Below are positions 24,842 through 38,928 of a stretch of DNA of 42,405 nt, piece by piece. The notes below the pieces were generated by a model. The model was not told the origin of the DNA. It was given only the letters and a program-made list of their open reading frames with translations, and searched no databases. Each line of letters starts with the position of its first letter. The stretch's first letter is position 1. Both the position numbers and the translations under genes were made by a program. Where the stretch lies: NCBI GenBank assembly GCA_016184305.1, contig JACPCX010000116.1, positions 1 to 42,405 of the forward strand, given 5' to 3'. The DNA is from Candidatus Rokuibacteriota bacterium. Its GTDB lineage: Bacteria; Methylomirabilota; Methylomirabilia; Rokubacteriales; CSP1-6.

Positions 24842-24901
24842 GGGGTCAGGTCTTGCATTACAACACAGTCCCGAAAATGCTGGATTGCAAGACCTGACCC
24901 C
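24842..24901. mobile_element. 60-bp non-autonomous mini-element (MITE/REPIN-like) with the Y1-element ends
   Basis: GGGGTCAGGTCTTGCATTACAACA + 12-bp spacer + TGCTGGATTGCAAGACCTGACCCC; perfect 16-bp inverted repeat. Confidence 0.85.
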
Positions 24902-24909
24902 ACCCTGGA

Positions 24910-26355
24910 ATGGGCAAGGTCACGGGGTTCCTCGAGTTCAAGCGCGACACGCAGGCGTACCGCCCCGTCGCCGAGCGGGTGCGCGACTTCAAGCAGGTCC
25001 TGCTGCCCTTCCCCGCGGACGCGCTCCGCAAGCAGGGCGCGCGCTGCATGGACTGCGGCATCCCCTTCTGCCATCAGGGCTGCCCGCTGGGCAACCTCAT
25101 CCCCGACTGGAACGACCTCGTCTACCGCGACCGGTGGAAGGAGGCCAGCGAGCGCCTCCACGCCACCAACAACTTCCCGGAGCTCACCGGCACCCTCTGC
25201 CCCGCTCCGTGCGAGGGTTCCTGCGTGCTCGGCATCAACGACGACCCGGTGACCATCAAGGCCATCGAGCTCGCCATCGTGGACCGCGCGTGGGAAGAGG
25301 GCTGGATCAAGCCCGAGCCGCCCGTCGTGAAGACGGGCAAGACCGTCGCCGTCGTGGGATCGGGCCCCGCGGGGCTTGCCGCGGCCCAGCAGCTCGCCCG
25401 CGCGGGGCATGCCGTCACCGTCTTCGAGCGCGACGACCGGCCCGGGGGCCTCCTCCGCTACGGTATCCCCGAGTTCAAGATGGAGAAGCGCGTGCTGGAC
25501 CGGCGGATCCGCCAGATGGCGGCCGAGGGCGTGACCTTCGTCACGGGCGCGCATGTGGGCGTGACCGTGGAGGTGGCGCGGCTCCGCGCCGACTTCGACG
25601 CGCTGGTGCTGACAGGTGGCGCGACCGCCCCGCGCGACCTGCCCATCCCCGGCCGGGAGCACGCGGGCATTCACTTCGCCATGGAGTACCTCACGCTCCA
25701 GAACCGGCGCTGCCAGGGCGAGGCGGTTTCCGACGAGCGCTTCATCACGGCGCGCGGCAAGCGCGTGGTCATCATGGGCGGCGGCGACACCGGCGCCGAC
25801 TGCCTCGGCACCGCCCACCGCCAGGGCGCGCGCTCCGTCCACCAGCTCGAGATCCTCCCGCGCCCGCCGGAGAACCGCGCGCCAGACAACCCGTGGCCGC
25901 AGTGGCCCAACACCTACCGCGTCTCCTCGGCGCATGCCGAGGGCGGCGAGCGCGTCTACTCCGTGTCCACCAGGCGCTTCCTCGGCGATGCCCATGGTCG
26001 CGTCAGCGCCCTCGAGGCCGTCGAGGTCGAGCTGGTCCGCGAGCACGGGCGCATGGCCTTCACGGAGAAGCCCGGCGCCGAGCTCACGCTGCCCTGCGAG
26101 CTGGTGCTCCTGGCCATGGGCTTCGTGGGCCCCGAGCGCCCCGGCATGCTGGAGGCTCTCGGCGTCCGCCTCACCGAGCGCGGCACCGTGTGGCGCGACG
26201 CGCAGTGGATGACCAGCGTGCCCGGCGTCTTCACGGCGGGCGACATGCAGCGGGGCCAGTCGCTGATCGTCTGGGCCATCGCCGAGGGGCGCAGCGCCGC
26301 CCGCGGCGTGGACGGCTATCTGATGGGCCGCTCCGACCTCCCCGCCCCTCTCTAG
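24910..26355 (+). CDS. gltD: Glutamate synthase small subunit
   Basis: [54 protein letters not shown]. Confidence 0.97.
26320..26352 (+). repeat. 33-bp direct repeat, copy 1 (gltD 3' end)
   Basis: CTGATGGGCCGCTCCGACCTCCCCGCCCCTCTC, identical to 35216-35248. Confidence 0.97.
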
Positions 26356-26380
26356 GGGTCAGGTCTTGCAATCCAGCACG
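26355..26380 (+). repeat. Outer left end (A-type)
   Basis: GGGGTCAGGTCTTGCAATCCAGCACG, identical to 34214-34239. Confidence 0.95.
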
Positions 26381-26441
26381 CCCGCCACGCGCCGCGATCC
26401 CCGACGGCGCCCGGCGGACCCGCCGGACGTCGCCCACGGGG

Positions 26442-28760
26442 CTACAGCCGGTGATGCGCGGTGCTCGCCATGTTCGTGAACCAGAAGTAGGGGAACCAGT
26501 TGGTCTGCGGCCACGGCACTCCCTTCGCCCCGTAGGCCTGGATCACCGCGTTGGTCTCGTCCATGCAGTTCTTGATGACCACGCTGTAGCCCGAGCCCAC
26601 GAAGGAGTCCGCCTTGGCGCGCGCGGCCTCGTAATCCGGATCCAGCACTGCGATGCGCTTGACCTCGGTGTACTGTGCGTCCTTGGTCCCCGCGCCCCAG
26701 CGCCGGAAGTAGTCCCTCATCGCCTCCTCGGTGAGGAACTTCTCGCTCCAGTGGTACCCGCGGTCGTCCTGCGAGGCGATGTAGGGCGCCATCCCTGTGC
26801 CGTCCACCGCGCCCGCGCGGAAGGTGCCGTCGGCCTGCTGGTAGCCCCAGCCGACATGGCCCGCGACCAGCGGCATGTTGGGACGGAAGAAGGCGTAGGC
26901 GAACCCGAGCCGCCGGCCGACAAGCCACTGCTGGTGCCGGGCCGCCGGCCACCTGCAATCCCAGAGCACCAGCTTCGCGCCGGCCGCCATGCTCTCCTTC
27001 TCGACGTCGAGGCACCGGCCGTTGACCCCCTTGAGGTGTCCGTCGCCGTCCGTCGCCCACCGCTGGTTGGCCCCGCCGGTGCAGTCCCAGAGGACGATGG
27101 CGTCCCCGTTCCGGCCCTGGCCGCCCTGGGCGTCGACGCACTTGCCCTGGGACTTGAGCGCCCCGTCGACGAGCTCGAACCGCTGCTCCGGCTGACCCGT
27201 GCACTCCACCAGCTGCAGCGCGGCGCCGCTGGCGGAGCCCGCCGGTCTCACGCACTTGTTGCTCGCCGCGCCGAGCAGGACGACGCCCTGGCCCCGCGTC
27301 TGCCGCGCGTTCTGGAGCACGGCCTGGGCGGTCTCGCGGCCGGCGAGCTCCACGGTCTTCCGCGCGATGCCGAGGGTATTCCAGTAGTAGTTGCGGACCT
27401 CGGGCTTCCGCAGGTAGGCCGCGATCCCTTCTGCGCCGCCTCCCTCGCGCCCCGCCCGCAGATCGACCAGCGCCGTGCGGTGAGGCGGCTGCCCCTCGTC
27501 CACGAGATAGGAGAGCAGCTCGGGCCGCGAGCGGACCTCGCTGGCGAAGGCCGCCGCCAGCGCCTCCCGGGCCGCCTCCCGCTCCTGCAGCGCGTACTGC
27601 TGGGCGATGCCCAGCGCGCTCCAGTAGTGATCGCGGACCTCGGGCTTCCGCAGATAGGCCGCGATCCCCGCGGCCCCGCCCCCCTCGCGCCCCGCCCGCA
27701 GATCCACCAGGGCCGTGCGGTAGGGCGGCTGGCTCGGGTCCAGCAGGTAGCTCATGAGGCCGGGGAACAGCCTCAGCTCGCGGTCGAACGCCCCCTGCAG
27801 CCCAGCCAGCACCGCGTCGCGCTCGAGGGTGGCGACCCGGCTGCCCACCGCATGAGTCTGCCAGTAGCGCTCCCGCACCTCCTGGCGCGCGAGCCAGCGC
27901 CGGATCCCGCCCGGCCCTCCGCCCTCCTGCCCCGCCCGGAGGTCGGCCAGCGCCGCCTTGAGCGGCGGCCGCCGATCGTCGCGGAGATAGCTCGCCAGCG
28001 CCGGCCAGCGCGTCACCTCCGCCGCGAAGCTCGCCTCCAGCGCCGCGGCGGCCGCCTCCCGCTCGAGTCGCGGGAGATCGGCCACGTCCTGGCGCCCCTG
28101 CGGGTGGGTCTTGAGCCACGTCGCCAGCCCGCTGATGCCCTGCACGGTGCCGCGGTCGGCCTCCCCGCGGGCGAGCTTCCACGTCCGGCTCCCAGGATCC
28201 AGGAGGAAGAGGCCCAGCGACCCCTGTGACTTCAGCTCGGCCTCGAATGCCCTCTGGATGGCCCAGGTCACCGTGAGATCCCGCAGCTGCCCCCGCAGCG
28301 ATGACTCGTCCAGCGCCCCCCGGGCCAGGGCCTCGGCATGCCTCTTGAGCCAGACTTCGTCCGGCATCCACTGCGGGATCTCCGCCCAGCCCTTGAAGAC
28401 GATGCGGCCGTGACGCGGGTACTGCTTGTCGGCCCGGTCGAACAGCCGCACGCTGCCGCGGAATGCGCCGTCGGTGCCAGTCCAGACGCTCCACGGTCCC
28501 CGGAGCCCCACATGGAAGCTGAGCTCGTCCAGAGTGGGCTCTCGCTTGAGGACTTGCTGATAGGTCGCCCGCACGCGCGCGGCGGCCTGCGCGGCCTCGC
28601 CCTGCCGTTGCTCCCGCCGCGCGCATTGCTCGACGCTCTCTCCCTCGCCGCACTGCGCGGAAGGGCGGCGCCCTTCGGTCCGGGGCACCTCCACCGCCAG
28701 CAGCAGCCCCACGGTCAGGACGGCAGCGGCGATCCTGCCAGCCGGTAGCAGACCTGTCAT
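26442..28760 (-). CDS. Secreted protein: signal peptide, three 80-aa repeats, ricin-B lectin domain, C-terminal putative permuted papain-like domain
   Basis: ATG at 28760 after GGAGGA; hydrophobic N-terminus; KCVD..IVLWDCTGGANQRW, RCLDV..LVLWDC..QQW; GHVGWG...Y....KNC. Confidence 0.8.
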   Translation of the reverse strand: MTGLLPAGRIAAAVLTVGLLLAVEVPRTEGRRPSAQCGEGESVEQCARREQRQGEAAQAAARVRATYQQVLKREPTLDELSFHVGLRGPWSVWTGTDGAFRGSVRLFDRADKQYPRHGRIVFKGWAEIPQWMPDEVWLKRHAEALARGALDESSLRGQLRDLTVTWAIQRAFEAELKSQGSLGLFLLDPGSRTWKLARGEADRGTVQGISGLATWLKTHPQGRQDVADLPRLEREAAAAALEASFAAEVTRWPALASYLRDDRRPPLKAALADLRAGQEGGGPGGIRRWLARQEVRERYWQTHAVGSRVATLERDAVLAGLQGAFDRELRLFPGLMSYLLDPSQPPYRTALVDLRAGREGGGAAGIAAYLRKPEVRDHYWSALGIAQQYALQEREAAREALAAAFASEVRSRPELLSYLVDEGQPPHRTALVDLRAGREGGGAEGIAAYLRKPEVRNYYWNTLGIARKTVELAGRETAQAVLQNARQTRGQGVVLLGAASNKCVRPAGSASGAALQLVECTGQPEQRFELVDGALKSQGKCVDAQGGQGRNGDAIVLWDCTGGANQRWATDGDGHLKGVNGRCLDVEKESMAAGAKLVLWDCRWPAARHQQWLVGRRLGFAYAFFRPNMPLVAGHVGWGYQQADGTFRAGAVDGTGMAPYIASQDDRGYHWSEKFLTEEAMRDYFRRWGAGTKDAQYTEVKRIAVLDPDYEAARAKADSFVGSGYSVVIKNCMDETNAVIQAYGAKGVPWPQTNWFPYFWFTNMASTAHHRL

Positions 28761-28788
28761 GACTTCCTCCTCGGCGACCTTCCGCCCG

Positions 28789-30750
28789 TCACTCCGTGCA
28801 CCCCTTCTGCGTGTACCGGGGCAGCCGGAGATCGCATGGCTTCCCCGCGGCGGCTCCCGCTTGCTCGGCACCCGCGGGGGCGACGGCGTCCCTGGGCGCC
28901 GGCGCGCCACTCTCGCGGCGCGCCGCCGGCGGGGGCGCGTCCACCGTCAGCGCAACCGGCCCCGCCGGCGCGCGGAGATCGAGGGTGCCCACCGGCCAGC
29001 GGTGAAGCCCGCTCGACACGTGGACCGTGTAGAGGTGGCCCGCCTCGACCGACCGGAACGAGGCGGCCACGGAGCGCTTGCCGTCCGTCCGTCCGAGCGC
29101 CTCGGGGCCCGTCGTCCTGCCGGCCGGAATCAGCGCCACGCTGTTGATCCACCCCACCGACCCGTCCGAGGGGGCGAAGCGGATGGTGAGCTCCACGGGC
29201 ACCCGCGAGACGGCTCCGGCGGGCGCGGCTGGCAGCGCTGGCGGGCTGGCGACGGCCCCGCCCGCGGAGGCGACCGGCCCCTGGGCGCCCGCCCCGTCGT
29301 GGCGGAGGTAGGTCACGCGATGGGGCTGGCCGTTGTAGACGTACTCGAACACGATGTGGTTGCCGGATTCCAGCCGTCCCGCACCGCGGACGGTGGAGGC
29401 GGAGAGCAGAACCTGGCTCCCGCGCAGCGCCCAGGTGCCCCGGGTGCTCGACTCTTCATAGCTCCCGTCGGCGCGGAGGACGATGGGCGGCGAGTTGCGG
29501 CAGCGCCCGCCGGCCCCCCCCACGTTGAACATCCAGCAGCGATAGGTCCCGGCGACGGAGGCCAGCGCCGAGGCTGGCGGCTGCGGGGTTGCCGCCGGCT
29601 TGCTCGCCTCGGGTTTCGTCGTGGCCGGCCGCTGATCGGCCCCGAGCGGGAACTCCGACGCGGCCGGCACGACGATCTCGCCCGCGGCGCCGCCGCGCAT
29701 GACGGAGAGCCGCGTGCGCTCCCCACGCATGCGGTGAGCCAGCGCGCCGCCCAGCTCCTCCGACGAGCGCAACCCCTGCCCGTTGACCCGGGTGACGACG
29801 TCGCCCGAACGCAACCCCGCGGCGGCAGCGGCACTGCCGGGCAACACCTCACGCACTACCACACCCTCGGTCACGTTCGAGCCCGGCGCCTGCGCCGTCT
29901 CGGCCGTGAGCGGGTCGACCCGGACTCCGAGCCGGCCCCGCTGCGGCGCGAAATCGGCCAGGCTGAGCCCGCTCCCTGCCAGCGGTGCCGCGGCCGGCGA
30001 AGTGGCCACCGGGGCCGCCACGGACGGCGACGTCGCTGCGGGCGCCTGTATCTCGCCCTGGGCCAGCGGCGGCAGCGGGAGCGGCGGCGGCGCGTCAGCG
30101 GCGGGAGCGGGCAGCGGCGCGGCCATGAGCGGCGGCAGCCCGGGGTTCGCAGCCACAGGCTCCGGCATCGGAGCTGAGGCGTCTCGGCCGCTCCGCGCGC
30201 GCGCGGCCTGCGCGCCGCTCCCAGTCACCAGATCGGCGATGGTCTTCACCACGCTCAGCATCGCGCCGAGGCCGTCCTCCGCCTCGGCGGCAGAGGGCGC
30301 GGCGCCAGCGCCGGACCATGCCGCGGGGGCGGGCGCGGGCATGGACGGCGGGCCAGCGGCGGGCGCCGGCAGCGGCGGGGCCTCGGGGGGCGGCGGCGGG
30401 GGCGCCAGGCTCGACGGCGGCGCCGGGAGAGCGGTCAGCCTCGCCGGCTCTCCGGCGCCGCCGCTCCCCGTCGCGACCATCGCCTCGAGCACCCGGTCGG
30501 AGACTCCCGCCTGCTTGAGCGCGATCAGCGCGTCGATCCGCAGGTCGAGCGCCGACGGCGTCGAGCGGAGCTTGGCGATGATCACCGCCTCTGGAAGGCC
30601 AGCCCTGGTCATGGCCACCAGGGACTCGTTGGTGATGACCTCCTGCGCCCCCGCCGGTCCGGAGTGGAGCCCACCCACGAGAACCAGCAGGGGCGCCGCC
30701 AGCACGAGAAGAAGGGTGGGCCTGACTCTGCGCCGCAGTAAGCTCGTCAT
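28789..30750 (-). CDS. Secreted Pro/Ala-rich PDZ-domain protein
   Basis: Signal ending AGA-QE; ITNESLVAMTRAGL..DALIALKQAGVS helical domain; GRLGV..VLPGSAAAAAGLRSGDVVTRVNG PDZ. Confidence 0.75.
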   Translation of the reverse strand: MTSLLRRRVRPTLLLVLAAPLLVLVGGLHSGPAGAQEVITNESLVAMTRAGLPEAVIIAKLRSTPSALDLRIDALIALKQAGVSDRVLEAMVATGSGGAGEPARLTALPAPPSSLAPPPPPPEAPPLPAPAAGPPSMPAPAPAAWSGAGAAPSAAEAEDGLGAMLSVVKTIADLVTGSGAQAARARSGRDASAPMPEPVAANPGLPPLMAAPLPAPAADAPPPLPLPPLAQGEIQAPAATSPSVAAPVATSPAAAPLAGSGLSLADFAPQRGRLGVRVDPLTAETAQAPGSNVTEGVVVREVLPGSAAAAAGLRSGDVVTRVNGQGLRSSEELGGALAHRMRGERTRLSVMRGGAAGEIVVPAASEFPLGADQRPATTKPEASKPAATPQPPASALASVAGTYRCWMFNVGGAGGRCRNSPPIVLRADGSYEESSTRGTWALRGSQVLLSASTVRGAGRLESGNHIVFEYVYNGQPHRVTYLRHDGAGAQGPVASAGGAVASPPALPAAPAGAVSRVPVELTIRFAPSDGSVGWINSVALIPAGRTTGPEALGRTDGKRSVAASFRSVEAGHLYTVHVSSGLHRWPVGTLDLRAPAGPVALTVDAPPPAARRESGAPAPRDAVAPAGAEQAGAAAGKPCDLRLPRYTQKGCTE

Positions 30751-31116
30751 GAGCGATTCCTCCCCGAAGCCTGCGATGACTGCTACCTCGCCCGTCGAGA
30801 ACACGGGGCTCCGGGGCACCCGAGGTGCAACCGGCCTGCCAGGTGACGGCCAGGCCCAAATGGGCTTCAGGATTGACGGAGACTGCGCCGTTGCCGGCGC
30901 TCCCCGCAAGCGGGGTGACAGGTTGGCACGAGTGTGACACGGGCTGCGGCCGCGCGGGCCGCACGGCGGACGGTACAACGGGCTCGCGGCGCGGACTGCG
31001 CGCCGCGGGTTACGGTCCCCAGGGGGTGGGCAAGGCCGGCGACGGCCTCTTCCACATGCTGGCGGAGCAACACAGGCCGATCCGGACCAACCCCGTCGCC
31101 CGCACCAGCGATCCCC

Positions 31117-32412
31117 TCAGTCCAGGTGCTCAGCGCCCGTGACGCCGGAGGGCGTGCGGAGGAAGCTCGCCGCCACGGCGCAGCCCAGCGGCAGCAGGGC
31201 CAGCAAGCGCAGGGTGGCGGCGGCGCTGCCCGCGAGGTCGAAGGCCAGCCCCACGGGCAGCGGGCCCAGCGCGGCTCCGAGGGCGCCGATCATCTGGCCC
31301 ATCCCCTGGATGCTGCCGAGGTGCCGGCGGCCGAAGTAGCGCGGCCACATGTAGCCGAACATCGTCATCGTCGAGGCGTTGTTGATCCCGAAGAGCATGG
31401 CGTAGAGCACGGCCGTGGCGACGTCGTGGACGAGCGTCACGCCGACGAGCGCGGCCCCGGTGACGAGCAGGCCCCCGGCGAAGGCGTGCCGCGTGCGCCC
31501 CCGATCGAAGAGGCGGCCGACGAGGGGCATGGCCAGCACCATCGTCAGCGCCGACACCGGGAACACCCGCGCGGCGATCTCCGCGGCCACCCCCTGCGCT
31601 CCCAGGATGGAGACCTGGTAGAAGTGCAGGGCCGTCGCCATCATCGTCGTGGTGAAAAAGCCGGCCCCGACGATGTAGAAGGCGGGCGTCCCGAGCGCCT
31701 CGCGCAGGGTGAGCCCGGTCAGCCCGGTCGTGGCGTCGCTGTCGGCCCTGGCAACCGCTGTCTCGGGCGGGTCGCCGTCCGGTCGAAGCCCTCTGTCCTC
31801 CGGCCTGTCGTGGACGAGCAGCAGGATCGGCGGCAGCAGCAGCGCCCAGGTGAAGAGGCCGAGCAGCACCCAGGCCCGCCGCCAGCCCAGCGTCTCGACC
31901 AGGTACTGGCCCAGCGGCGGATGTATCGCCATCGAGGCGGCGAAGCCGAGTGCCATGAGGCTCAGGGCGAAGCCGCGGCGGCGACTGAACCACTGCGAGA
32001 CCAGGTTGGTGCAGCCCAGCATCAGCGCGCCCATGCCGAAGCAGCGCAGCGCCGCGAAGCCGGCGGCGAGCCAGACGAGGTTGGCGGCGGCGCCCAGGGC
32101 CAGGCAGGCGGCCCCGAACAGCAACGCCACCACCGCGGTCATTCGGCGGGCCCCGAAACGGTCCAGCAGCCGGCCCATGTACGGCAGGCAGAGGGCCGCC
32201 ACGAGCGTCGCGATGCCGTAGGCCGACCCGATCGCGGCCTTGGACAGGCCGAGGTCCCTGCCGATGGGCCCGATGAAGACGCTGAAGATATGCGACTGGC
32301 CGGCACCGCTGGCGAAGAGGCCGAGGCCGGCCACGGCCACGACAGTCCAGCCGTAGAACCATCGCCTGCTGATCGCGGCGAAGACCGCCGTCCTCACCCC
32401 GCCGTCGGCCAC
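31117..32412 (-). CDS. MFS transporter
   Basis: WFYGWTVV, GRLLDRFGAR (motif A), WFSRRRGFA, RYFGRRHLGSIQG; start approximate. Confidence 0.9.
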   Translation of the reverse strand: MADGGVRTAVFAAISRRWFYGWTVVAVAGLGLFASGAGQSHIFSVFIGPIGRDLGLSKAAIGSAYGIATLVAALCLPYMGRLLDRFGARRMTAVVALLFGAACLALGAAANLVWLAAGFAALRCFGMGALMLGCTNLVSQWFSRRRGFALSLMALGFAASMAIHPPLGQYLVETLGWRRAWVLLGLFTWALLLPPILLLVHDRPEDRGLRPDGDPPETAVARADSDATTGLTGLTLREALGTPAFYIVGAGFFTTTMMATALHFYQVSILGAQGVAAEIAARVFPVSALTMVLAMPLVGRLFDRGRTRHAFAGGLLVTGAALVGVTLVHDVATAVLYAMLFGINNASTMTMFGYMWPRYFGRRHLGSIQGMGQMIGALGAALGPLPVGLAFDLAGSAAATLRLLALLPLGCAVAASFLRTPSGVTGAEHLD

Positions 32413-32581
32413 GTCGCGCTCCCCGGGAAGCCGCCGGGACCAATGGGGATTCCCGCCGGCCAGTCTACCCGCGATCAGCCGCAGGCGAAATGCCGGAGTC
32501 ACGCCCCGCCCGGCCGAGAAGTGTGGCACTCTGGGGGCCATCGCCGGGCGGCCGGCGGAGCCCCCGCGCAAAGGAGGACCC

Positions 32582-33463
32582 ATGGACTTCGGCGCACACA
32601 TCTTCGGCGTGGGACAACTGGCCGAGCCCGAGACGCTGGCGCAGCTCGCGCGCCGGGCCGAGGAGCTGGGCTACCACTCGGTGTTCCTGGCCGATCACAT
32701 CATCGTCCCGCGGCACCTGGCCTCGCCCTACCCGTATTCCCGGGACGGCCGCTTTCCCTATGACCCGGACCTGGACTGGCTCGATCCCATGGTCGCCCTC
32801 GGCTACCTCGCCGCGCACACCACCACGATCCGCCTCGGCACCAGCATCACGGTGCTGCCCATGCGGCATCCGATCGTCACCGCCAAGCAGATCGCCAGCG
32901 CCGACCACCTCTCCCGGGGACGCGTCATCTTCGGGGCCGGCGTGGGCTGGATGGCGGAGGAGTTCGCCCTCCTCGGGGCCTCGTTTCACGACCGCGGACG
33001 GCGCATGGACGAGTACCTGCGGCTCATGAAGGTCCTGTGGACCGAGGAGCACCCCCGCTTCGCGGGCGCGTACTTCCAGGTCGAGGACTGCGGGTTCGCC
33101 CCCAAGCCCACGCAGAAGCCGCATGTGCCGATCTGGGTCGGCGGCGAGAGCCCGGCCGCCATGCGCCGCGCGGCACGGCTGGGGGATGGGTGGCACTCGG
33201 CCGCCACGTCCCTGGCCGACCTCCCCGGGAAGCTGCGCCTCCTCCGCGAGGCGCTGGCCGGGGCCGGACGTAACGAGGCCGCGTTCGTCATCAGCGCCTC
33301 GCCCACGGATCGGCTCACGCTGGACCTCGTCCAGGACTTCGCGGCCCAGGGCGTCCGGCACCTGCTCGCGCCGGTATTCAGCCTCGATCGCGAGAGAGTC
33401 CTGCAGCGCCTGGAGCACATCGCCGCCCACGTCATCGAGCCGTACCGGCGCGGCGACCGATGA
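32582..33463 (+). CDS. LLM-class (F420-dependent type) oxidoreductase
   Basis: AEELGYHSVFLADH, IRLGTSITVLPMRHP, LSRGRVIFGAGVGW, PIWVGG, RAARLGDGW. Confidence 0.92.
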   Translation: MDFGAHIFGVGQLAEPETLAQLARRAEELGYHSVFLADHIIVPRHLASPYPYSRDGRFPYDPDLDWLDPMVALGYLAAHTTTIRLGTSITVLPMRHPIVTAKQIASADHLSRGRVIFGAGVGWMAEEFALLGASFHDRGRRMDEYLRLMKVLWTEEHPRFAGAYFQVEDCGFAPKPTQKPHVPIWVGGESPAAMRRAARLGDGWHSAATSLADLPGKLRLLREALAGAGRNEAAFVISASPTDRLTLDLVQDFAAQGVRHLLAPVFSLDRERVLQRLEHIAAHVIEPYRRGDR

Positions 33464-33494
33464 GCCCCGGGGCGCCGCCGGCCGCGGGTGTCGC

Positions 33495-34025
33495 TCATGC
33501 CCCACGCGAGGCGGCCCGCAGCCGCTCCGCCCGCTCCTCCGCCTGCCGGACGCGCCTGGAGAGCGTCACCAGGAGGTTCTGGGTGAGCCCGGGGACGTCC
33601 TCGAGAAGCCCGGAGAAGTTCCGCCGGCTGATCACGAGGAGGCGGAGCGGGGTGTGCGCGACGACCGTGGCGGACCGCGGCCCGCCATCCAGGAGGCTCA
33701 TCTCGCCGAAGAACTCACCGGGGGGCAGGAGCACGTGCTTGTCCGCGGACACGTCGGCGCGCGCGGTGCCGTCGATGATCAGGAAGAACTCGTCGCCGGG
33801 CTCGCCCGCGCGGGTGATGACCGTGTCGGCCGCGACGTCGAACACGCGTGCGATCCTGGCCACGCTCCGGAGCTGTTTCTGGCTGCACCCCTCGAACAGC
33901 AGGACTTCCTTGAGCCGCTCGATCTTGTCCTCCTGGCGGGCCCCGGGTCCGGAGGCGACGGGTTCGCAGCGCCCCCGGGGGTCATAGGAAATCGAGCCGT
34001 CCATCATCCGGCTGTTCAGCTCCAC
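33495..34025 (-). CDS. Cyclic-nucleotide-binding domain protein
   Basis: GEPGDEFFLIIDG, GEFFGEMSLLDGGPRSATV; start uncertain. Confidence 0.88.
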   Translation of the reverse strand: MELNSRMMDGSISYDPRGRCEPVASGPGARQEDKIERLKEVLLFEGCSQKQLRSVARIARVFDVAADTVITRAGEPGDEFFLIIDGTARADVSADKHVLLPPGEFFGEMSLLDGGPRSATVVAHTPLRLLVISRRNFSGLLEDVPGLTQNLLVTLSRRVRQAEERAERLRAASRGA

Positions 34026-34217
34026 GGGACTCCTCCTCTCCGGTCGCGCCGTCCAGCGACGCCCGGAACCTCAGGGGCCACTACCCCCGGCGCGCTCCCC
34101 AGTCTAGCACTCGACGCCCCGTGCCACCCGCCCGGCGTCCTGGCGTCCCCGACCCCCTCCGCTCCAGTTCCGCCTGAGACTATAGCAACCCCGGCGCCTT
34201 CCATCCGGCGCCCGGGG

Positions 34218-35117
34218 TCAGGTCTTGCAATCCAGCACGGCCGACGTAGTGCTCGGCGCCTCGCCCCGCGACAACGCGCGGCTGACCGTCACATAGTGGA
34301 CGCCGAGAAACGCTGCGACCGCCTTCATCGTGTAGCCGTGGTCGTGGACCGCGCGGACGCAGCGGGCATCGCGGTCATGCTTCGAGTCAACGCCCGCGAA
34401 CACCGTGGCCAGGGGCGGTCGCAGAGCGAACCGCTGCTGCCGTGGAATCTCCGTGAGGGTAGCCGCGCCTCGGACCATATCACATAGGTGCGCCTGGACC
34501 GTCGCGTCGCCCACCTCGAGGCCCCCGTGGAAGCCCTCGACGCCCTCCAACGGCATAGCCGTCTCGCCAAGCCCCGCTTCCACGAACTCGCGGTACCTGC
34601 CCTCGGCCTCCGCGCGCGCGGCCGTGTCGCCGAGGGCTAACACCCAGTCCACCGTCAGGAACGCCGGCACCGCCGCCGAGCCGGCGGTCGACCGGTAGCT
34701 ACTCCAGCGCCAATCGGCCGGATGAGCGACGAGCCCGGCCCGCACCGGGTTAAGCACAATGTAGCGGCAGACGGCGCGCAGGTAGACGTCCTTGTCCACC
34801 ACCTGCGCATGGAAGCGGCCTTCCAGCACGTGCCCGGGGCGGCGGTGGCGGCGGGTGAAACCCTGGCTGTAGACGCCATTGAGCTGCCGCATGGCACGGG
34901 AGAGATTGCCTTCGGGCGTTTCCAGGAGCAGGTGGTAGTGATTGCCCATCAAGCAGTAGGCATGGCAGAGGACGTGATAGCGCGCGACCACGGAGGCGAG
35001 CACGGCCAGCAAGCGCTCATGGTCGGTGTCATCGGCGAAGACGGGCTGGCGCCCGTTCCCACGGGATGTCACGTGATAGAGCGCACCCGGGAACTGTAGG
35101 CGAAGCGGCCGTGCCAT
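34218..35117 (-). CDS. Y1 HUH transposase (RAYT/TnpA-like) with C-terminal HTH
   Basis: YHVTSRGN, YCLMGNHYHLL (HUH), RYIVLNPVRAG (catalytic Tyr), WRWSSY, GYTMKAVAAFLGVHYVTVSR (HTH). Confidence 0.93.
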   Translation of the reverse strand: MARPLRLQFPGALYHVTSRGNGRQPVFADDTDHERLLAVLASVVARYHVLCHAYCLMGNHYHLLLETPEGNLSRAMRQLNGVYSQGFTRRHRRPGHVLEGRFHAQVVDKDVYLRAVCRYIVLNPVRAGLVAHPADWRWSSYRSTAGSAAVPAFLTVDWVLALGDTAARAEAEGRYREFVEAGLGETAMPLEGVEGFHGGLEVGDATVQAHLCDMVRGAATLTEIPRQQRFALRPPLATVFAGVDSKHDRDARCVRAVHDHGYTMKAVAAFLGVHYVTVSRALSRGEAPSTTSAVLDCKT

Positions 35118-35189
35118 GCTCCGACGCTACCGCGGGCGCCACCTCGCACTCAAGACGTAGACGCCGAGATACACCCTGTCAAGGACCGC

Positions 35190-35213
35190 TGTCGGAATGC
35201 AAGACCTGACCCC
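35190..35213 (-). repeat. Right end (B-type)
   Basis: Reverse complement reads GGGGTCAGGTCTTGCATTCCGACA. Confidence 0.95.
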
Positions 35214-35215
35214 CA

Positions 35216-35248
35216 CTGATGGGCCGCTCCGACCTCCCCGCCCCTCTC
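35216..35248 (+). repeat. 33-bp direct repeat, copy 2, followed by GCG TGA (displaced original gltD end)
   Basis: Identical to 26320-26352; reads [16 protein letters not shown]. Confidence 0.97.
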
Positions 35249-35308
35249 GCGTGACACCCGCCGCCGCGAACCACGCGTGCATCGGCACCGATACACGCGG
35301 CGGAATCA

Positions 35309-35337
35309 TTGACACGTATACCCGCCACACGTAACCT
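35309..35337 (+). promoter_or_regulatory. Sigma70 promoter, probably leaderless, for the GT operon
   Basis: TTGACA-17 bp-TAACCT, then 6 nt to ATG 35344. Confidence 0.7.
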
Positions 35338-35343
35338 GCCGGC

Positions 35344-36318
35344 ATGAGCGCCGTCATCGGCCCGACCGGGGCCATGCCCAGCGCGGGAGTCACCGTCGTG
35401 GTCCCGACCTACAACCGCGCCGAGAGCTTGCGGGCAACCCTCGCCACGCTGGGCGCGCAGGAGGTGCCGCCCGGGCTGCGGTGGGACATCGTGGTCGTGA
35501 ACAACAACTCGCGCGACCACACGCCGCAGGTCGTGGAGGAATTCGGCAGCACCGCGAGCGTGCCCGTCCGCTATCTCTTCGAGGGAAAGGCGGGCAAGAG
35601 CCACGCGCTCAACGCCGGCATCGCCCTGGCCACGCACGACTTCCTGCTGTTCACCGACGACGATGTCCTGACCAGTCGCGCCTGGGTCGCTTCGGCCGTA
35701 CTCGCCGTGTCGCGGTGGGGAGCGGACGGCATCGGGGGGCGCATCCTCCTGAAGTGGCCGGTGCCGCCGCCGCGCTGGCTGGCGAGGAACGCGGATGCGC
35801 AGCAGAATCTCGGGCTCATGGACTTCGGCCGGCCTCAGGCCATCGCCGCGCGCGTCCGAGGTGTGCCGGCCGTGTGGGGCGGGAACATGGGATTCAGGCG
35901 GGCCGTGCTCGAATCGCTCGGGGGCTTCGACACCACGCTGGGGCCGGTGGGCGACAAACATGCCCTGAGTGAGGATGTCGATGTGGTGCAGCGGGCGGTA
36001 CAGAAAGGCTGGAAGGTCATGTACGACCCGTCGCTGCTCGTCTGGCACACGGTGGCGCCGGAGCGGATGCACAAGGCGTATTTCCGGAAGTGGGCGTTCA
36101 GGTACGGCGAGGCCGAGGCGAAGATTCTGCGCGTCGACCCGGCGCCGCGCCTGTTCGGCGTCCCGCGATGGAGGTACCGGGCGGCGATGGCTGCTGCGGC
36201 CGGGTGCCTGGGTCGGGCCCTGCTCCTGCGGGACGACGCGTTCGACCGCCAGCGCGAGCTCTTTCGGATGCTCGGCCAGGCGTGGGGCCTGGCGCGACGG
36301 GCTCGGGCTGGCCGGTGA
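35344..36318 (+). CDS. GT2 glycosyltransferase
   Basis: VVVPTYNR, VVNNNSRD, ALNAG, FTDDD, GGNMGFRR, EDVD. Confidence 0.92.
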   Translation: MSAVIGPTGAMPSAGVTVVVPTYNRAESLRATLATLGAQEVPPGLRWDIVVVNNNSRDHTPQVVEEFGSTASVPVRYLFEGKAGKSHALNAGIALATHDFLLFTDDDVLTSRAWVASAVLAVSRWGADGIGGRILLKWPVPPPRWLARNADAQQNLGLMDFGRPQAIAARVRGVPAVWGGNMGFRRAVLESLGGFDTTLGPVGDKHALSEDVDVVQRAVQKGWKVMYDPSLLVWHTVAPERMHKAYFRKWAFRYGEAEAKILRVDPAPRLFGVPRWRYRAAMAAAAGCLGRALLLRDDAFDRQRELFRMLGQAWGLARRARAGR

Positions 36319-37922
36319 CGGCACACCGGCAGATCGCCTGCGTGGTGATGAGCCTGCGAAGCCCCGCTTACCTGGTGGACGCAGTCCGCTCGCTCCTCGC
36401 CCAGGATGAACCGGCCGAGCTCGTCGTGGTCAACTCAGGCGGAGGCGATCCCGAGAGCCTGCTGCGCGCCGCCGGGATCGATGTGCCCGTCATCACGCGC
36501 AAGGAAGTGCTCTATCCGGGAGGCGCGCGCAACCTGGGGATCGAGGCAACCGGCGCGCCCTATGTCGCCTTTCTTGCCTGCGACTGCCTGGCGGAGCCCG
36601 GATGGGTCAGCGGCAGGCTCCGCGCCCACCGGGCCGGCGCGCAGCTTGTGTCTGCGGCCATGACCAATCCCCGTCCGTACGCGATGTCGGCGGTTGCCTC
36701 GCACGTCATCCTGTTCGGCCGCCGCCTGCCCGGCACCCCGCCATCCCTGTGGCTGCACTACAGCGGATCCTATGACCGCAGGCTGTTCGAACAGTACGGG
36801 CCGTTCCGCGAAGACCTGCGAACCGGGGAGGATACCGAGTTCCGGAAGCGCCTGGGGCCCGAGGTGGTCCCGTACGCCGCCCGCGATGTACGAACGGGCC
36901 ACCGCCATCCCACCTCGATCCTCTCCCTGATCCGTGACCAGTACCATCGAGGCGGGCGCACGGTCCGCGCGTACCGCATGATCTGGGGCGACGCCGCCGT
37001 CGCGCGCGCGATACGGGAAATCAGGCGGAGCTTCCTCGATGGCCTGCGATGGGCGTGGGCGGGGACCCGGCCGGGAGACCGATGGCCGCTCATCCTGTCC
37101 CTGCCGCACAGGCTCCTCGCCACGGCCGCCGCGGCCGTGGGCGCGCGCCTTGATTCGGCCAGGCACGAAGGGGGTGCGCCGGAGCGCACTCCCCCCCTTC
37201 ATGCCTTGCTCGTCTGCCGCAACGAGATGAAATACCTGCCCGGGTACATCGAGAACATCTCTCCGCATGTGGACGGTATCGTGGCGCTGGACGACGGATC
37301 CAGCGACGGCTCCGCTGAGTTCCTGGAGAGGCAGCGCAACGTCCTGGAAGTGGTCAGGCTGCCGGCCACAACGCCGCACGTGTGGGATGAGCCCGGCAAT
37401 CGGCGCAGGCTGCTGGAGGCCGCCGGGAGGCATCAGCCCGAATGGCTTATCGCCCTCGATGCCGACGAACGCGTGGAGCGCCATTTCCGCACCCGTGCCC
37501 TGAGCGCGATCGGCTGGGCCCAGCGCCGGGGCGTGGCGGCATGCGCCGTCACGTTCCGCGAGCTGTGGGACGCTCCCGACCAGTACCGCGCCGACGGGAT
37601 CTGGGGAACGAAGCTGCGCGCCAACCTCTTCCGATGGCGTCCCGATCATGCGCTCGACGCCAAGGGCTTCCACGGGAGGTGGGCCCCCCTCAATGCCAAC
37701 CCGGGCGGCGGCTTCCCTCCCGTGGACGTCGTGATCTATCACCTGCGCATGATCCGCTCCGAGGATCGCGCGGCCAGGCGCCAGCGGTATGAAGCGCTGG
37801 ACCCCGGGAACACGTGGCAGGAGATCGGCTACGCCTACCTCACCGACACCAGTGGTATCCGGTTGGAGCGCTTGCCACCCGGCAGAGACTACTGCCCCAT
37901 CGAAGACGAGCTCTCCCGGTAA
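36315..37922 (+). CDS. Two-domain GT2-type glycosyltransferase
   Basis: GTGA overlap; GGARNLG..AFLACDC..GEDTEF, then CRNE..ALDDGSSDGS..WLIALDADE. Confidence 0.85.
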   Translation: MTAHRQIACVVMSLRSPAYLVDAVRSLLAQDEPAELVVVNSGGGDPESLLRAAGIDVPVITRKEVLYPGGARNLGIEATGAPYVAFLACDCLAEPGWVSGRLRAHRAGAQLVSAAMTNPRPYAMSAVASHVILFGRRLPGTPPSLWLHYSGSYDRRLFEQYGPFREDLRTGEDTEFRKRLGPEVVPYAARDVRTGHRHPTSILSLIRDQYHRGGRTVRAYRMIWGDAAVARAIREIRRSFLDGLRWAWAGTRPGDRWPLILSLPHRLLATAAAAVGARLDSARHEGGAPERTPPLHALLVCRNEMKYLPGYIENISPHVDGIVALDDGSSDGSAEFLERQRNVLEVVRLPATTPHVWDEPGNRRRLLEAAGRHQPEWLIALDADERVERHFRTRALSAIGWAQRRGVAACAVTFRELWDAPDQYRADGIWGTKLRANLFRWRPDHALDAKGFHGRWAPLNANPGGGFPPVDVVIYHLRMIRSEDRAARRQRYEALDPGNTWQEIGYAYLTDTSGIRLERLPPGRDYCPIEDELSR

Positions 37923-38190: not shown

Positions 38191-38928
38191 TCAGCGCGCC
38201 GGGCTCTGCCAGAGGACGTGACCGACGAAGAAGGGGCCCAGGCTCTGGATGTACTCGGATGTCTGGGCCGTGTTCCGCATCGTCTGCACCAGGCGGGAGA
38301 GCGGGTGGAGGTCGCGGCTCACGAGGCCGATGACGAAGTCGTTGTCGTGGGTGTCGAGCCCGTGGCAGGCCAGGCGGACGTCGTGGGCCAGGTCGGCGTC
38401 GCCATAGCTGCGGCCGAGGGTGGCGTGCTCCCTCAGGATGGCGCTCTGCTCCTGCGGCGACAGCCGCGCGAAGGCCCCGACCCGGCGCAGCGGGTACCAG
38501 ATGGCCCAGGGCCAAGCCGGATTGAGCACGGTGCGCCGCGGACGGTTGAGGAGCCAGTCCTCCAGGTCCGACTCGAAGCCGGAAGAGTAGCTGCGGCCCA
38601 GCATGGTCAGCTCGGGCTTGAGCGTCAGGGCAGCGAAGGGCTCCGTGCTGAGCACATCGCGGAGGCGCGTGACGAAGAAGGCCGGGTCCTCGGCGCAGGC
38701 GAGCAGGCCCACGCCCCGCGGGTCGCTGACGTCGGCGTACAGCACCGCCTCGATCCGGCTCGCCTCGAGCGCCCGCACCAGCCCCTTGCCGTCCGCGCAG
38801 CCCCCGAACACCTGCAGCAGCATGAACAGCCGCCGGCTCGACGTCCGCTGATTGGCCCCACGCTCCAGCACATCCACGCTGATCTCGCTCGCTGGACTGC
38901 CCTGCTGCCCGCCCGGTCGCGTCGTCAT
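38191..38928 (-). CDS. Chlorite dismutase/coproheme decarboxylase (Cld/ChdC) family heme protein
   Basis: WYPLRR...ILREHATLGRSY...GLD..DFVIGL...MR. Confidence 0.85.
   Translation of the reverse strand: MTTRPGGQQGSPASEISVDVLERGANQRTSSRRLFMLLQVFGGCADGKGLVRALEASRIEAVLYADVSDPRGVGLLACAEDPAFFVTRLRDVLSTEPFAALTLKPELTMLGRSYSSGFESDLEDWLLNRPRRTVLNPAWPWAIWYPLRRVGAFARLSPQEQSAILREHATLGRSYGDADLAHDVRLACHGLDTHDNDFVIGLVSRDLHPLSRLVQTMRNTAQTSEYIQSLGPFFVGHVLWQSPAR

Follow-up and report, generated by a model that had tools for sequence, protein, structure and literature searches.

A genus-specific island and a TIRYT gene at a duplicated gltD 3' end in a Rokuibacteriota genome

The last 33 bp of gltD occur twice in the 42,405-nt window (the whole stretch of DNA analysed). 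The interval between the two copies is tentatively explained as a genus-specific island plus a TIRtron in a former short gltD-hemQ spacer, with the second copy (S') an irregular by-product of repair. We give this reading a probability of about 0.45. A sequence-only reading of the same DNA had instead proposed a transposon, recently inserted, that can move about 8 kb of cargo. The repeats and the recombinase-like gene of the locus are as follows; G000 denotes the source genome, and G001, G002 and G003 are relatives.

S, left 33-bp copy: 26320..26352, + strand, last 11 sense codons of gltD
S', right 33-bp copy: 35216..35248, + strand, non-coding at this position
REP1: 26355..26384, + strand, solitary TIR copy touching the gltD stop; its reverse strand still encodes ..VLDCKT*
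REP2: 34214..34243, + strand, proximal TIR of the TIRYT gene; overlaps its last codons (CKT*) and stop
REP3: 35194..35213, - strand, distal TIR of the TIRYT gene, followed by CA(C), as is the homologous repeat in G002
TIRYT (RAYT subclass 2.1) gene: 34218..35117, - strand, 299 aa, Y1 HUH, putative C-terminal HTH, single copy
Alternative gltD tail GCG TGA (Ala-stop): 35249..35254, + strand, used by G001
TIR doublet, REPIN-like hairpin: 24842..24901, no strand assigned, two exact inverted 16-mers in the gltB-gltD spacer

Sequence reading and a repeat search both placed CTGATGGGCCGCTCCGACCTCCCCGCCCCTCTC at 26320-26352 and 35216-35248 with 33/33 identity, as had been claimed. Among 1000 site pairs drawn at random from the same genome, no word longer than 13 was shared between the 100-bp flanks. 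The perfect 16-bp inverted repeat, GGGGTCAGGTCTTGCA, was likewise found as described, at 26355-26370 (+) and 35198-35213 (-), 2 nt inside each 33-mer, with TA before the left arm and CA after the right arm. The TA before the left arm is part of gltD's own stop codon, TAG; in G002, G014 and G028 the same stop closes gltD with no repeat present. The exact 16-mer occurs five times in the window, where about 0.5 occurrences are expected by chance at up to 3 mismatches and 0/100 shuffles reached five. An extra copy at 34214-34229 (+) pairs with 35198-35213 and encloses the Y1 gene alone; the longer segments 34214-34233 and 35194-35213, which flank this gene, are 95% complementary. REP1 matches REP2 at 29 of 30 nt (97%; 26355-26384 against 34214-34243) and is its closest copy in the genome (30/34 identical, as compared to 27/34 for the next best).

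The Y1 gene, present once, is a TIRYT whose ends are of the GGGGWSAS type; such genes were described in 2013. TIRYTs, with their TIRtrons, correspond to TnpA_REP subclass 2.1 in the available text of Di Nocera, De Gregorio and Rocco (2013; PMC3733652) and Quentin et al. (2018; PMC6006769). The GGGGWSAS inverted repeats that the sequence-only reading had mentioned beside a subclass of Y1 genes appear in the same two texts. A C-terminal HTH extension (Bac_DnaA_C, HTH_23 or HTH_28) is a further criterion for this type. The protein encoded here matched NF047646 at 94.2 bits (cutoff 80) and PF01797 at 46.8 bits (cutoff 23), and it was the one TIRYT match in G000. Residues H60-Y61-H62 and Y119 were invariant in 23 sequences (G000 and 22 homologs; 3 of 25 homologs were left out for internal stops). 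HTH_23 scored 22.2 bits at residues 251-284, slightly under its 24.6 cutoff, in a region that is conserved in the homologs. An exact inverted repeat of at least 12 nt bracketed 66 of 73 TIRYT homolog loci, nearly all beginning with GGGGTCAGGTCT. A domain search of the ORFs filling the 33-mer-bounded interval returned no other recombinase domain, so that the Y1 gene stands as its sole recombinase-like gene. Tyrosine and serine recombinases were absent from the long ORFs of the interval and from the extra genes of G003, and a search for a tRNA or tmRNA target at the site found none; an integrase-type integrative island was rejected on these grounds.

The outer "TIRs" of the gltD unit are members of a dispersed, genome-wide family tied to TIRYT genes. 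The repeat unit starts with GGGG (head GGGGTCAG) and is not self-complementary. G000 (3.2 Mb) holds 42 copies of the 16-mer at up to 2 mismatches, mostly in hairpin-forming doublets, with 19 close inverted pairs among them. The family numbers about 40-126 copies per genome, and counts in the congeners span 10-126. Doublets have predicted folds of -19 to -38 kcal/mol as compared to only -3 for single copies, and the doublet in the gltB-gltD spacer is predicted to fold as a DNA hairpin at -19.2 kcal/mol. The TIR sequence also encodes the conserved C-terminal CKT* of TIRYT. No TIRYT match was found in G001, which has only 10 repeat copies.

The genes of the locus are as follows.

gltD, glutamate synthase small subunit: 24910..26355, + strand, TIGR01317 at 734 bits; ends ...PAPL*, TAG at 26353-26355
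Island gene 1, 822 aa, ricin-type lectin domain: 26442..28910, - strand, PF00652 at 71 bits; three 240-bp internal repeats
Island gene 2, PDZ-domain protein: 28789..30978, - strand, PF13180; start codon uncertain
Island gene 3, MFS transporter: 31117..32601, - strand, PF07690 at 175 bits
Island gene 4, F420-dependent luciferase-like oxidoreductase: 32582..33463, + strand, TIGR03619 at 255 bits
Island gene 5, cyclic-nucleotide-binding protein: 33495..34025, - strand, PF00027 at 67 bits
Block Y, two GT2 glycosyltransferase genes: 35344..37922 (35344-36318; about 36090-37922), + strand, outside the repeat-bounded unit
HemQ-like gene, chlorite-dismutase family: 38191..38928, - strand, PF06778; ancestral convergent neighbour of gltD

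Of 41 genomes, 3 (G000, G002 and G003) had the lectin-like and PDZ genes, at one site only, and no second insertion site of the lectin-to-TIRYT unit was found. G003 is collinear with G000 from gltB through the island at 88% identity, the island having the same divergence as its flanks. In G003, a REP1 copy lies at the same gltD stop codon, the island is bounded exactly by REP1 and REP3, and a TIRYT remnant occupies the same relative place. G002 is collinear at 83%; its island genes follow the native ...CTG TAG without REP1, and its one TIRYT copy is near hemQ. S' is missing after REP3 in both G003 and G002. S differs at 4/33 positions between G000 and G003, while S and S' are identical within G000. 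Judging from these alignments, the island and its left junction predate the split of the related species, the left junction being common to G003 and the cargo to G002. A recent insertion, as had been proposed, is therefore not supported, since G003 has the same left junction and genes and G002 has the genes without the repeat.

The empty site predicted by the sequence-only reading does exist. G001, which is 96-98% identical, has the single-copy form, ...CCTCTC GCG TGA CACCCGCC..., running straight into the 35249+ sequence. As a sequence, this site fits loss by recombination at the 33-mer at least as well as it fits insertion; the flanking direct repeat (33/33) and the empty site are both present, and both are equally expected from deletion between repeats. 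The locus illustrates that inverted ends, a direct repeat and an empty site are not by themselves proof of fresh transposition; slightly more distant relatives reversed the apparent polarity at the gltD island. A comparison of gltD tails across 12 genomes showed PAPLA* (the S'-GCG-TGA type) to be how gltD naturally ends in G007 and G027. Ten genomes of other genera have gltD and hemQ as convergent neighbours separated by about 35 bp to 2.9 kb, and no island homologs were found in the 6 gltD-hemQ gaps examined. With gltD and the HemQ-like gene directly adjacent in other genera, the block is therefore taken as a genus-specific island in that spacer. The hemQ tail in G003 is derived and fused to REP3, whereas G000, G001 and G002 retain LWQSPAR*. 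Block Y is partly deleted in G001 and was not found at the corresponding place in G003.

Under the preferred reading, an island plus TIRtron in the gltD-hemQ spacer, the TIRtron would consist of the single-copy TIRYT gene and its own inverted-repeat pair. REP3 would be the distal repeat of the TIRYT gene, and REP1 looks like the leftover 3' end of the TIRtron. S' would be a second copy of the gltD end that arose at the border of REP3, as a rare and irregular break-and-repair by-product of TIRYT cutting at the repeat edge, and the duplication would involve no transposase-set staggered cut. The same type of event may have duplicated 13-37 bp of gene ends at a few small doublets, where offsets vary and filler bases occur. 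In G001, recombination between S and S' would have restored gltD...GCG TGA. The identity of S and S' could mean that S' is young, or that close strains have lost and regained the island across the 33-mer. We infer, rather than observe, the repair event that gave S'. Against this explanation, an exact 33/33 match with 2-nt offsets on either side looks tidier than a repair accident; REP1 and REP3 bound the G003 island exactly, as expected after insertion of a unit; and the empty site in the nearest relative, G001, is precisely what an insertion model would predict. Should S' predate the G000-G001 split while the island is older still, an extra event would be needed.

An old insertion of a unit at the gltD end in the genus ancestor, duplicating S, is unlikely. 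In that scenario, either the TIRtron arrived alone and the island was added afterwards at its 3' end, between REP1 and REP2, or both arrived together. G003 would then have lost S', block Y and four hemQ codons by a deletion from the REP3 edge, and G001 would have lost the element via S x S' recombination. The island is indeed an insertion relative to other genera and is REP1/REP3-bounded in G003, where the junction begins exactly at REP3 and the hemQ tail is derived. The 29/30 match of REP1 to REP2, which takes in the last codons of TIRYT, and the natural occurrence of the PAPLA* tail in G007 and G027 also agree with it. However, with 88% identity to G003 and S differing at 4/33 positions, about 2-4 differences would be expected between S and S', and the chance of none is about 0.02-0.14 unless the copies were homogenised. 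G002, without REP1 and without S', also does not fit.

Somewhat less likely again is an integrative cassette for which S is the attachment site, the island and TIRtron leaving and re-entering the gltD end across the 33-mer by host homologous recombination or by an unrecognised site-specific activity such as that of TIRYT. The left copy would give ...L-TAG and the right copy would keep the native ...L-A-TGA. Site-specific integration classically leaves an island flanked by two copies of the 3' end of a conserved gene. Filled and empty alleles do occur in near relatives, repeated cycles would keep the two copies identical, and another strain has a variant S' (contig X8, below). However, no tyrosine/serine integrase or excisionase was found in the G000 island or the extra genes of G003, the contig data, which are of a kind unable to reveal a circular junction, contained none, and 33 bp is close to the lower length limit for efficient homologous recombination.

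A recent move of the 8.86-kb REP1-REP3 segment into the gltD end by TIRYT, as a unit transposon with a 33-bp target duplication, is quite improbable. It would account for the perfect 33-bp repeat, the perfect 16-bp inverted ends with their symmetric 2-nt offsets, the empty site in G001 (96-98% identical), exactly as predicted, a TIRYT that is intact with HUH and Tyr conserved, and the small doublets with confirmed target duplications. However, G003 has the same left junction and genes at a divergence equal to the flanks (88%), G002 has the genes after the native TAG with no repeat, and a recent hop would need to have hit, to the nucleotide, the place that the block already occupies in congeners. 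Flank repeats were also found at only 1/73 TIRYT units and at 0/2 further units in relatives. A recently moved unit or composite transposon, and with it the proposal of a transposon moving about 8 kb of cargo, was not supported: the ends are dispersed, a third copy lies inside, and the unit was found at one site in G000, G002 and G003 and at no other.

Assembly backing for the right junction of G000 is limited. Logan contigs (k=31) from 3 runs all break at the 33-mer because any repeat of at least 31 nt breaks k=31 contigs, and among these contigs and X8 none independently bridges the right junction of G000 itself. X8, a contig from an independent study (record 30), spans 34208 to 35329 and crosses the right junction, joining TIRYT, REP3, a partial S' and the 35249+ sequence. 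X8 has 10 gap letters at 35215-35229 and differs from G000 in the first half of S'. It is highly improbable that island-bearing and island-free haplotypes were artificially joined through the shared 33-mer; the source is a 239-contig metagenome bin, both haplotypes exist in nature (G000, G001), the Logan contigs break there and 33 is a common assembler k value, but a de Bruijn path would still require real reads linking REP3-CA to the start of S, and X8 makes the link independently.

As in TIRtrons, the Y1 HUH protein is longer than classical RAYTs and has a putative C-terminal HTH, its gene is flanked by GGGGWSAS inverted repeats, and the repeats are non-self-complementary and form moderately abundant families and dimers. 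Unlike in TIRtrons, 7.8 kb of unrelated genes lie together with the TIRtron between the distal copy and an additional, solitary third one, and the whole block lies inside a 33-bp gene-end duplication. The text of Di Nocera et al. (PMC3733652), in the parts available, does not contain the word "duplication" and describes no insertion footprint; the available RAYT/TIRYT literature more widely (PMC3733652, PMC6006769, PMC2817692) describes the gene-plus-repeats layout and no such footprint. REPIN-RAYT systems (Nunvar 2010, PMC2817692; Bertels & Rainey 2011, PMC3116915), as far as those texts go, share a single-copy, vertically inherited Y1 gene between two inverted repeats and dispersed hairpin doublets, with few repeats where the gene is missing, as in G001. 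The unit here differs in having no palindrome and no GTAG head, an extra putative HTH domain and another lineage. IS200/IS605 elements have the same catalytic fold and motifs (Pfam Y1_Tnp) and are multi-copy; their hairpins are subterminal, and they neither have TIRs nor duplicate the target to any sizeable extent (Nunvar 2010, PMC2817692, available text). Membership was rejected, as the gene here is single copy and TIRs are present.

Some islands insert at gene 3' ends and duplicate the gene end, such as e14 in icd of E. coli. The gltD locus resembles these in having the last codons twice (functional and displaced) around accessory genes and in having an island-free relative; it differs in lacking an integrase and in having TIRYT repeats at its boundaries.

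These ends do not regularly leave long flank duplications. An exact flank repeat of at least 14 nt was found at 3/76 repeat pairs (0/1000 random controls). Of 73 TIRYT genes, 1 had a flank duplication, and two further TIRYT units in relatives had none. In the case of doublet C34, a 17-bp duplication with 10 filler bases was observed; G001 and G002 have one copy and no doublet. Doublet C217 shows a displaced native tail and a 13/14 duplication, and the corresponding site in G001 is empty. The duplication at C65 is about 37 bp and imperfect, and that at G015:C45 is 27 bp. It is doubtful that TIRYT joins DNA with GGGGTCAGG-type repeats at its boundaries, ranging in size from doublets of 50 bp up to a segment of 9 kb with genes, into gene 3' ends with duplication of 13-37 bp, the invaded gene keeping or regaining a stop at the repeat edge. 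If true, such insertion would be chemistry new for any HUH Y1 transposase, and these would be the first natural before-and-after footprints for RAYT/TIRYT. The genus offers before/after pairs at base resolution for the gltD island and for two small doublets; in each case a relative has the single-copy site. They frame the questions of the position, counted from the GGGG head, at which the enzyme cuts, and of whether repair duplicates a neighbouring gene end. An unrelated insert of about 720 bp in G001 also has a gene-start duplication, of about 55 bp; TIRYT may thus be unconnected with duplications of this sort.

The 33-bp duplication and the inverted ends described in the sequence-only reading are both present. 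The final 33 sense bases of gltD, at 26320-26352, are found again without a mismatch at 35216-35248, and GGGGTCAGGTCTTGCA lies 2 nt inside both copies of the 33-mer, in opposite orientations. Among 1000 random site pairs in the source genome (G000), the longest word common to paired 100-bp flanks was 13, so the 33-mer is far beyond chance. GC content does not change across either junction. The features are as follows.

26320-26352: S, the last 33 sense bases of gltD
26355-26384 (+): REP1, terminal repeat of a dispersed family
between REP1 and REP2: the island, five genes (lectin-domain protein, PDZ protein, MFS transporter, F420-type oxidoreductase, cNMP-binding protein)
34214-34243 (+): REP2, terminal repeat of the same family
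34218-35117 (-): TIRYT gene, encoding a Y1 HUH transposase-like protein of RAYT subclass 2.1
35194-35213 (-): REP3, terminal repeat of the same family
35216-35248: S', the non-coding right copy of S
35344-37922: block Y, two GT2 genes
38191-38928 (-): hemQ-like gene

The 16-mer occurs five times within the window. Its copies at 34214 and 35198 form a 20-nt inverted pair around the Y1 gene alone, and two further copies make a 60-bp hairpin in the gltB-gltD spacer. Across the G000 genome there are 42 copies at no more than two mismatches (22 forward, 20 reverse), compared to one and one for a reversed-pattern control. With a 14-mer at no more than one mismatch, 40 ends were found in G000, 38 of which resolve into 19 close inverted pairs, of 49-145 bp plus the 1000-bp gene unit; of the two ends that stay unpaired, one is the copy adjoining gltD. 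These doublets (close inverted pairs) fold as DNA into hairpins of -19 to -38 kcal/mol, and single copies do not fold (-3 kcal/mol). The motif is present in 10, 109 and 126 copies in three congeners, in 41 and 61 copies in two other genera of the family, and in 0-3 copies in the remaining 35 genomes searched. The congener G001, with only 10 copies where congeners have 40-126, has no TIRYT match and is repeat-free at all four orthologous doublet sites examined. This scarcity fits repeat loss after enzyme loss, or a lineage that was never rich in repeats.

The Y1 protein scores 94.2 bits against the NCBIfam model for REP-associated tyrosine transposases, above its cutoff of 80, and shows a weak C-terminal HTH_23 match; its gene is single-copy in G000. 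Homologs were taken from 73 metagenomic loci with flanks, 44-84% identical to the G000 protein (84% being the maximum among the matches listed, which did not include the nearest strains). Of these loci, 66 lie between the arms of an exact inverted repeat (12 nt or longer), and nearly all of these repeats begin GGGGTCAGGTCT. Tn3-family ends likewise begin GGGG; such an origin was rejected, as the locus lacks a DDE gene and the repeat accompanies TIRYT genes at 66/73 loci. All 23 aligned sequences share the HUH triad (H60-Y61-H62) and Y119. The last three TIRYT codons and the stop (CKT-stop) lie within the terminal repeat (34218-34229) and are conserved in 23/23 aligned homologs, so part of the repeat's conservation may reflect coding constraint.

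This gene-plus-repeats system is of an already known kind. The statement in the sequence-only reading that GGGGWSAS-type inverted repeats occur beside a Y1 subclass proved correct: the TIRYT/TIRtron class (a TIRtron being a TIRYT gene with its own inverted repeat pair) has repeats that share GGGGWSAS and make up "moderately abundant families" of dimers, as described by Di Nocera et al. (2013, PMC3733652), and it is the same class as the TnpA_REP subclass 2.1 defined by Quentin et al. (2018, PMC6006769). The general layout, a rayt gene between two inverted repeats, appears in the text of Nunvar et al. 2010 (PMC2817692). In the literature covered by a full-text search, no target-duplication footprint was found described for REP-type repeats. 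The word 'duplication' has no occurrence in the text of Di Nocera et al. and appears in that of Nunvar et al. only in IS200 background.

Flank duplications around these repeats are rare. Exact outside-flank repeats of at least 14 nt were found at 2 of 19 pairs in G000 and at 1 of 57 further pairs (29 in G015, 17 in G007 and 11 in G002, two TIRYT units included), and a flank repeat of at least 11 nt at 1 of 73 homolog gene units. The regular 30-35-bp duplication at a 2-nt offset that had been anticipated around other elements failed to appear (0/76 pairs); the duplications of the three positive pairs measure 17 bp, 21 bp (about 37 bp imperfect) and 27 bp, with offsets of 0/10, 14/20 and 2/14. 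These ends usually make no duplication. The positives (loci C34, C217, C65 and G015:C45) are nonetheless real, and every one lies at a gene 3' end. At C34, a 17mer is followed by a 140-bp doublet, 10 filler bases and the 17mer again; G001 and G002 have one 17mer and no doublet. The same gene end in G003 (G003:C87:21698-21759, against G000:C34:14128-14267) carries a 62-bp doublet that corresponds to the two ends of the 140-bp doublet and takes the place of about 19 nt at the end of the gene with no duplication; there were either two hits at this site or one old insert that was remodelled. At C217, which is empty in G001, the gene now ends at a TAA formed at the repeat edge, and beyond the doublet lie a 13/14 copy of the gene end and the native tail. 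The duplication at C65 (about 37 bp, imperfect) includes the stop codon, and that at G015:C45 (27 bp) a stop codon; a search for an orthologous empty site of the C65 doublet found none. Of the four sites compared that have a doublet in G000 and none in G001, two show duplication and two do not. There is no regularity in length, offset or filler bases. Nor are TIRYT repeats alone in having long gene-end duplications: at the place of a 50-bp doublet of G000 (C218:23854-23903), G001 has an insert of ~720 bp (G001:C169, about 600-1430) that lies between two copies of a ~55-bp stretch from the start of the downstream gene (ATGAGG..CTGGTCACCGGGGG..ATCGGCGCGGTGCTGG), a duplication unrelated to TIRYT repeats.

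In the case of gltD, the congener G003 (88% identity) ends the gene with ...CTC TAG GGGGTCAGGTCTTGCAATCCAGCACGCCCG..., a solitary repeat at the identical stop codon, and has the island genes downstream of it as in G000, with order unchanged. In G002 (83%), gltD ends ...CTG TAG without the repeat, followed by island genes as in G000. The native ...PAPL ending with TAG and no repeat is also found in G014 and G028, and ...PAPLA plus stop in G001, G007 and G027. The "TA" before the left repeat therefore belongs to the stop codon of gltD itself, and the left junction, with the repeat at this stop in G003 too, is older than the G000-G003 split. At the corresponding relative position, G003 has a TIRYT remnant minus about 590 bp and G002 has a repeat pair, with a TIRYT copy on the hemQ-bearing scaffold. 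No copy of the gltD end follows the distal repeat in either genome: in G003 the sequence is CCCC-C-CTGCCAGAGG, which joins hemQ four codons ahead of the native stop, and in G002 it is CCCT-CAC-CGGGGC. A right-flank DNA search in 41 relatives gave weak paralog matches only. None of the conclusions depends on G012, an unpublished genome.

Outside the genus, gltD and a HemQ-like gene lie next to each other in convergent orientation in 10 genomes, separated by about 35 bp to 2.9 kb. None of the 6 outgroup gltD-hemQ gaps examined contains a homolog of TIRYT, of the GT2 genes or of any island gene, and lectin-like and PDZ genes occur in only 3/41 genomes, always at the gltD site. Together these observations indicate that the island was acquired by the genus ancestor in the gltD-hemQ spacer. 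Block Y was rejected as ancestral filler of this spacer, having no homologs in the same 6 gaps. In G003 the island has REP1 and REP3 as exact boundaries. REP1 is the genome copy closest to REP2 (30/34 identical, next best 27/34), a 30-nt direct repeat (26355-26384 versus 34214-34243, 29/30) brackets the five island genes alone, and the reverse strand of REP1 still reads ..VLDCKT plus stop, the TIRYT C-terminus. This closeness and the retained C-terminus suggest that a TIRtron may have been there first and received the island in its 3' end, REP1 and REP2 being the resulting ~30-bp duplication. The lectin-domain gene contains three tandem 240-bp repeats, 63-75% identical (27357-28064), and evolves fast (protein identity 87% to G003 and 68% to G002). 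The PDZ orthologs G003:C80:65887-68016 and G002:C207:44163-45893 have one in-frame TGA each, for which a pseudogene, an error in the frame or a selenocysteine codon could account; in G000 the reading frame is open.

G001, 96-98% identical to G000 at the gltD locus, reads ...CCTCTC GCG TGA CACCCGCC... and then the 35249+ sequence, which is the empty site that had been predicted. The best-supported account, with a probability of roughly 45%, is an old island and TIRtron, S' as a secondary gene-end duplication and G001 as an S x S' recombinant. The outer repeats would be members of the dispersed family rather than private transposon ends, and S' would have arisen at the edge of REP3 when cutting by TIRYT seeded a rare event of break and repair. 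Recombination of S with S' would then give the G001 form and remove TIRYT with it, a loss that G001's mere 10 repeat copies fit.

An old insertion of the unit with target duplication is unlikely. S differs at 4/33 positions between G000 and G003 and at 4/33 between G000 and G002, and S and S' are identical in G000, whereas about 2-4 differences (a rough estimate from 88% identity) would be expected had S' dated from the original insertion. S' is thus younger than the island, or homogenised. Cycling of an att-like cassette across S is somewhat more doubtful: integrase or tRNA-type integration was rejected, as the interval ORFs, in keeping with the sequence-only reading, contain no DDE, tyrosine or serine recombinase domain, G003's extra genes include no tyrosine or serine integrase, and no tRNA or tmRNA was found at the interval. 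The recent hop of the whole unit first proposed draws support from the exact empty site in G001, but it is improbable because the left junction predates the G000-G003 split; recent insertion is disfavoured by that junction in G003, with the genes in unchanged order, and by the G002 genes after a native TAG. An assembly artefact is the least credible, given one contig from an unrelated study (12 studies contain the locus) that joins TIRYT and REP3 to the 35249+ sequence, although the first half of S' shows 10 gap letters there. This contig, rather than G000's own reads, shows that the adjacency is real and the junction variable among close strains. Logan contigs (k=31) end at the 33-mer and neither confirm nor deny the G000 junctions; the 15 joints listed of 109 include no 8896-bp skip.

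Nucleotide identity between G000 and G001 varies by locus (88% at C173, 92-95% at C217 and 96-98% at gltBD), a pattern that may point to recombination between lineages or to bins of mixed origin.
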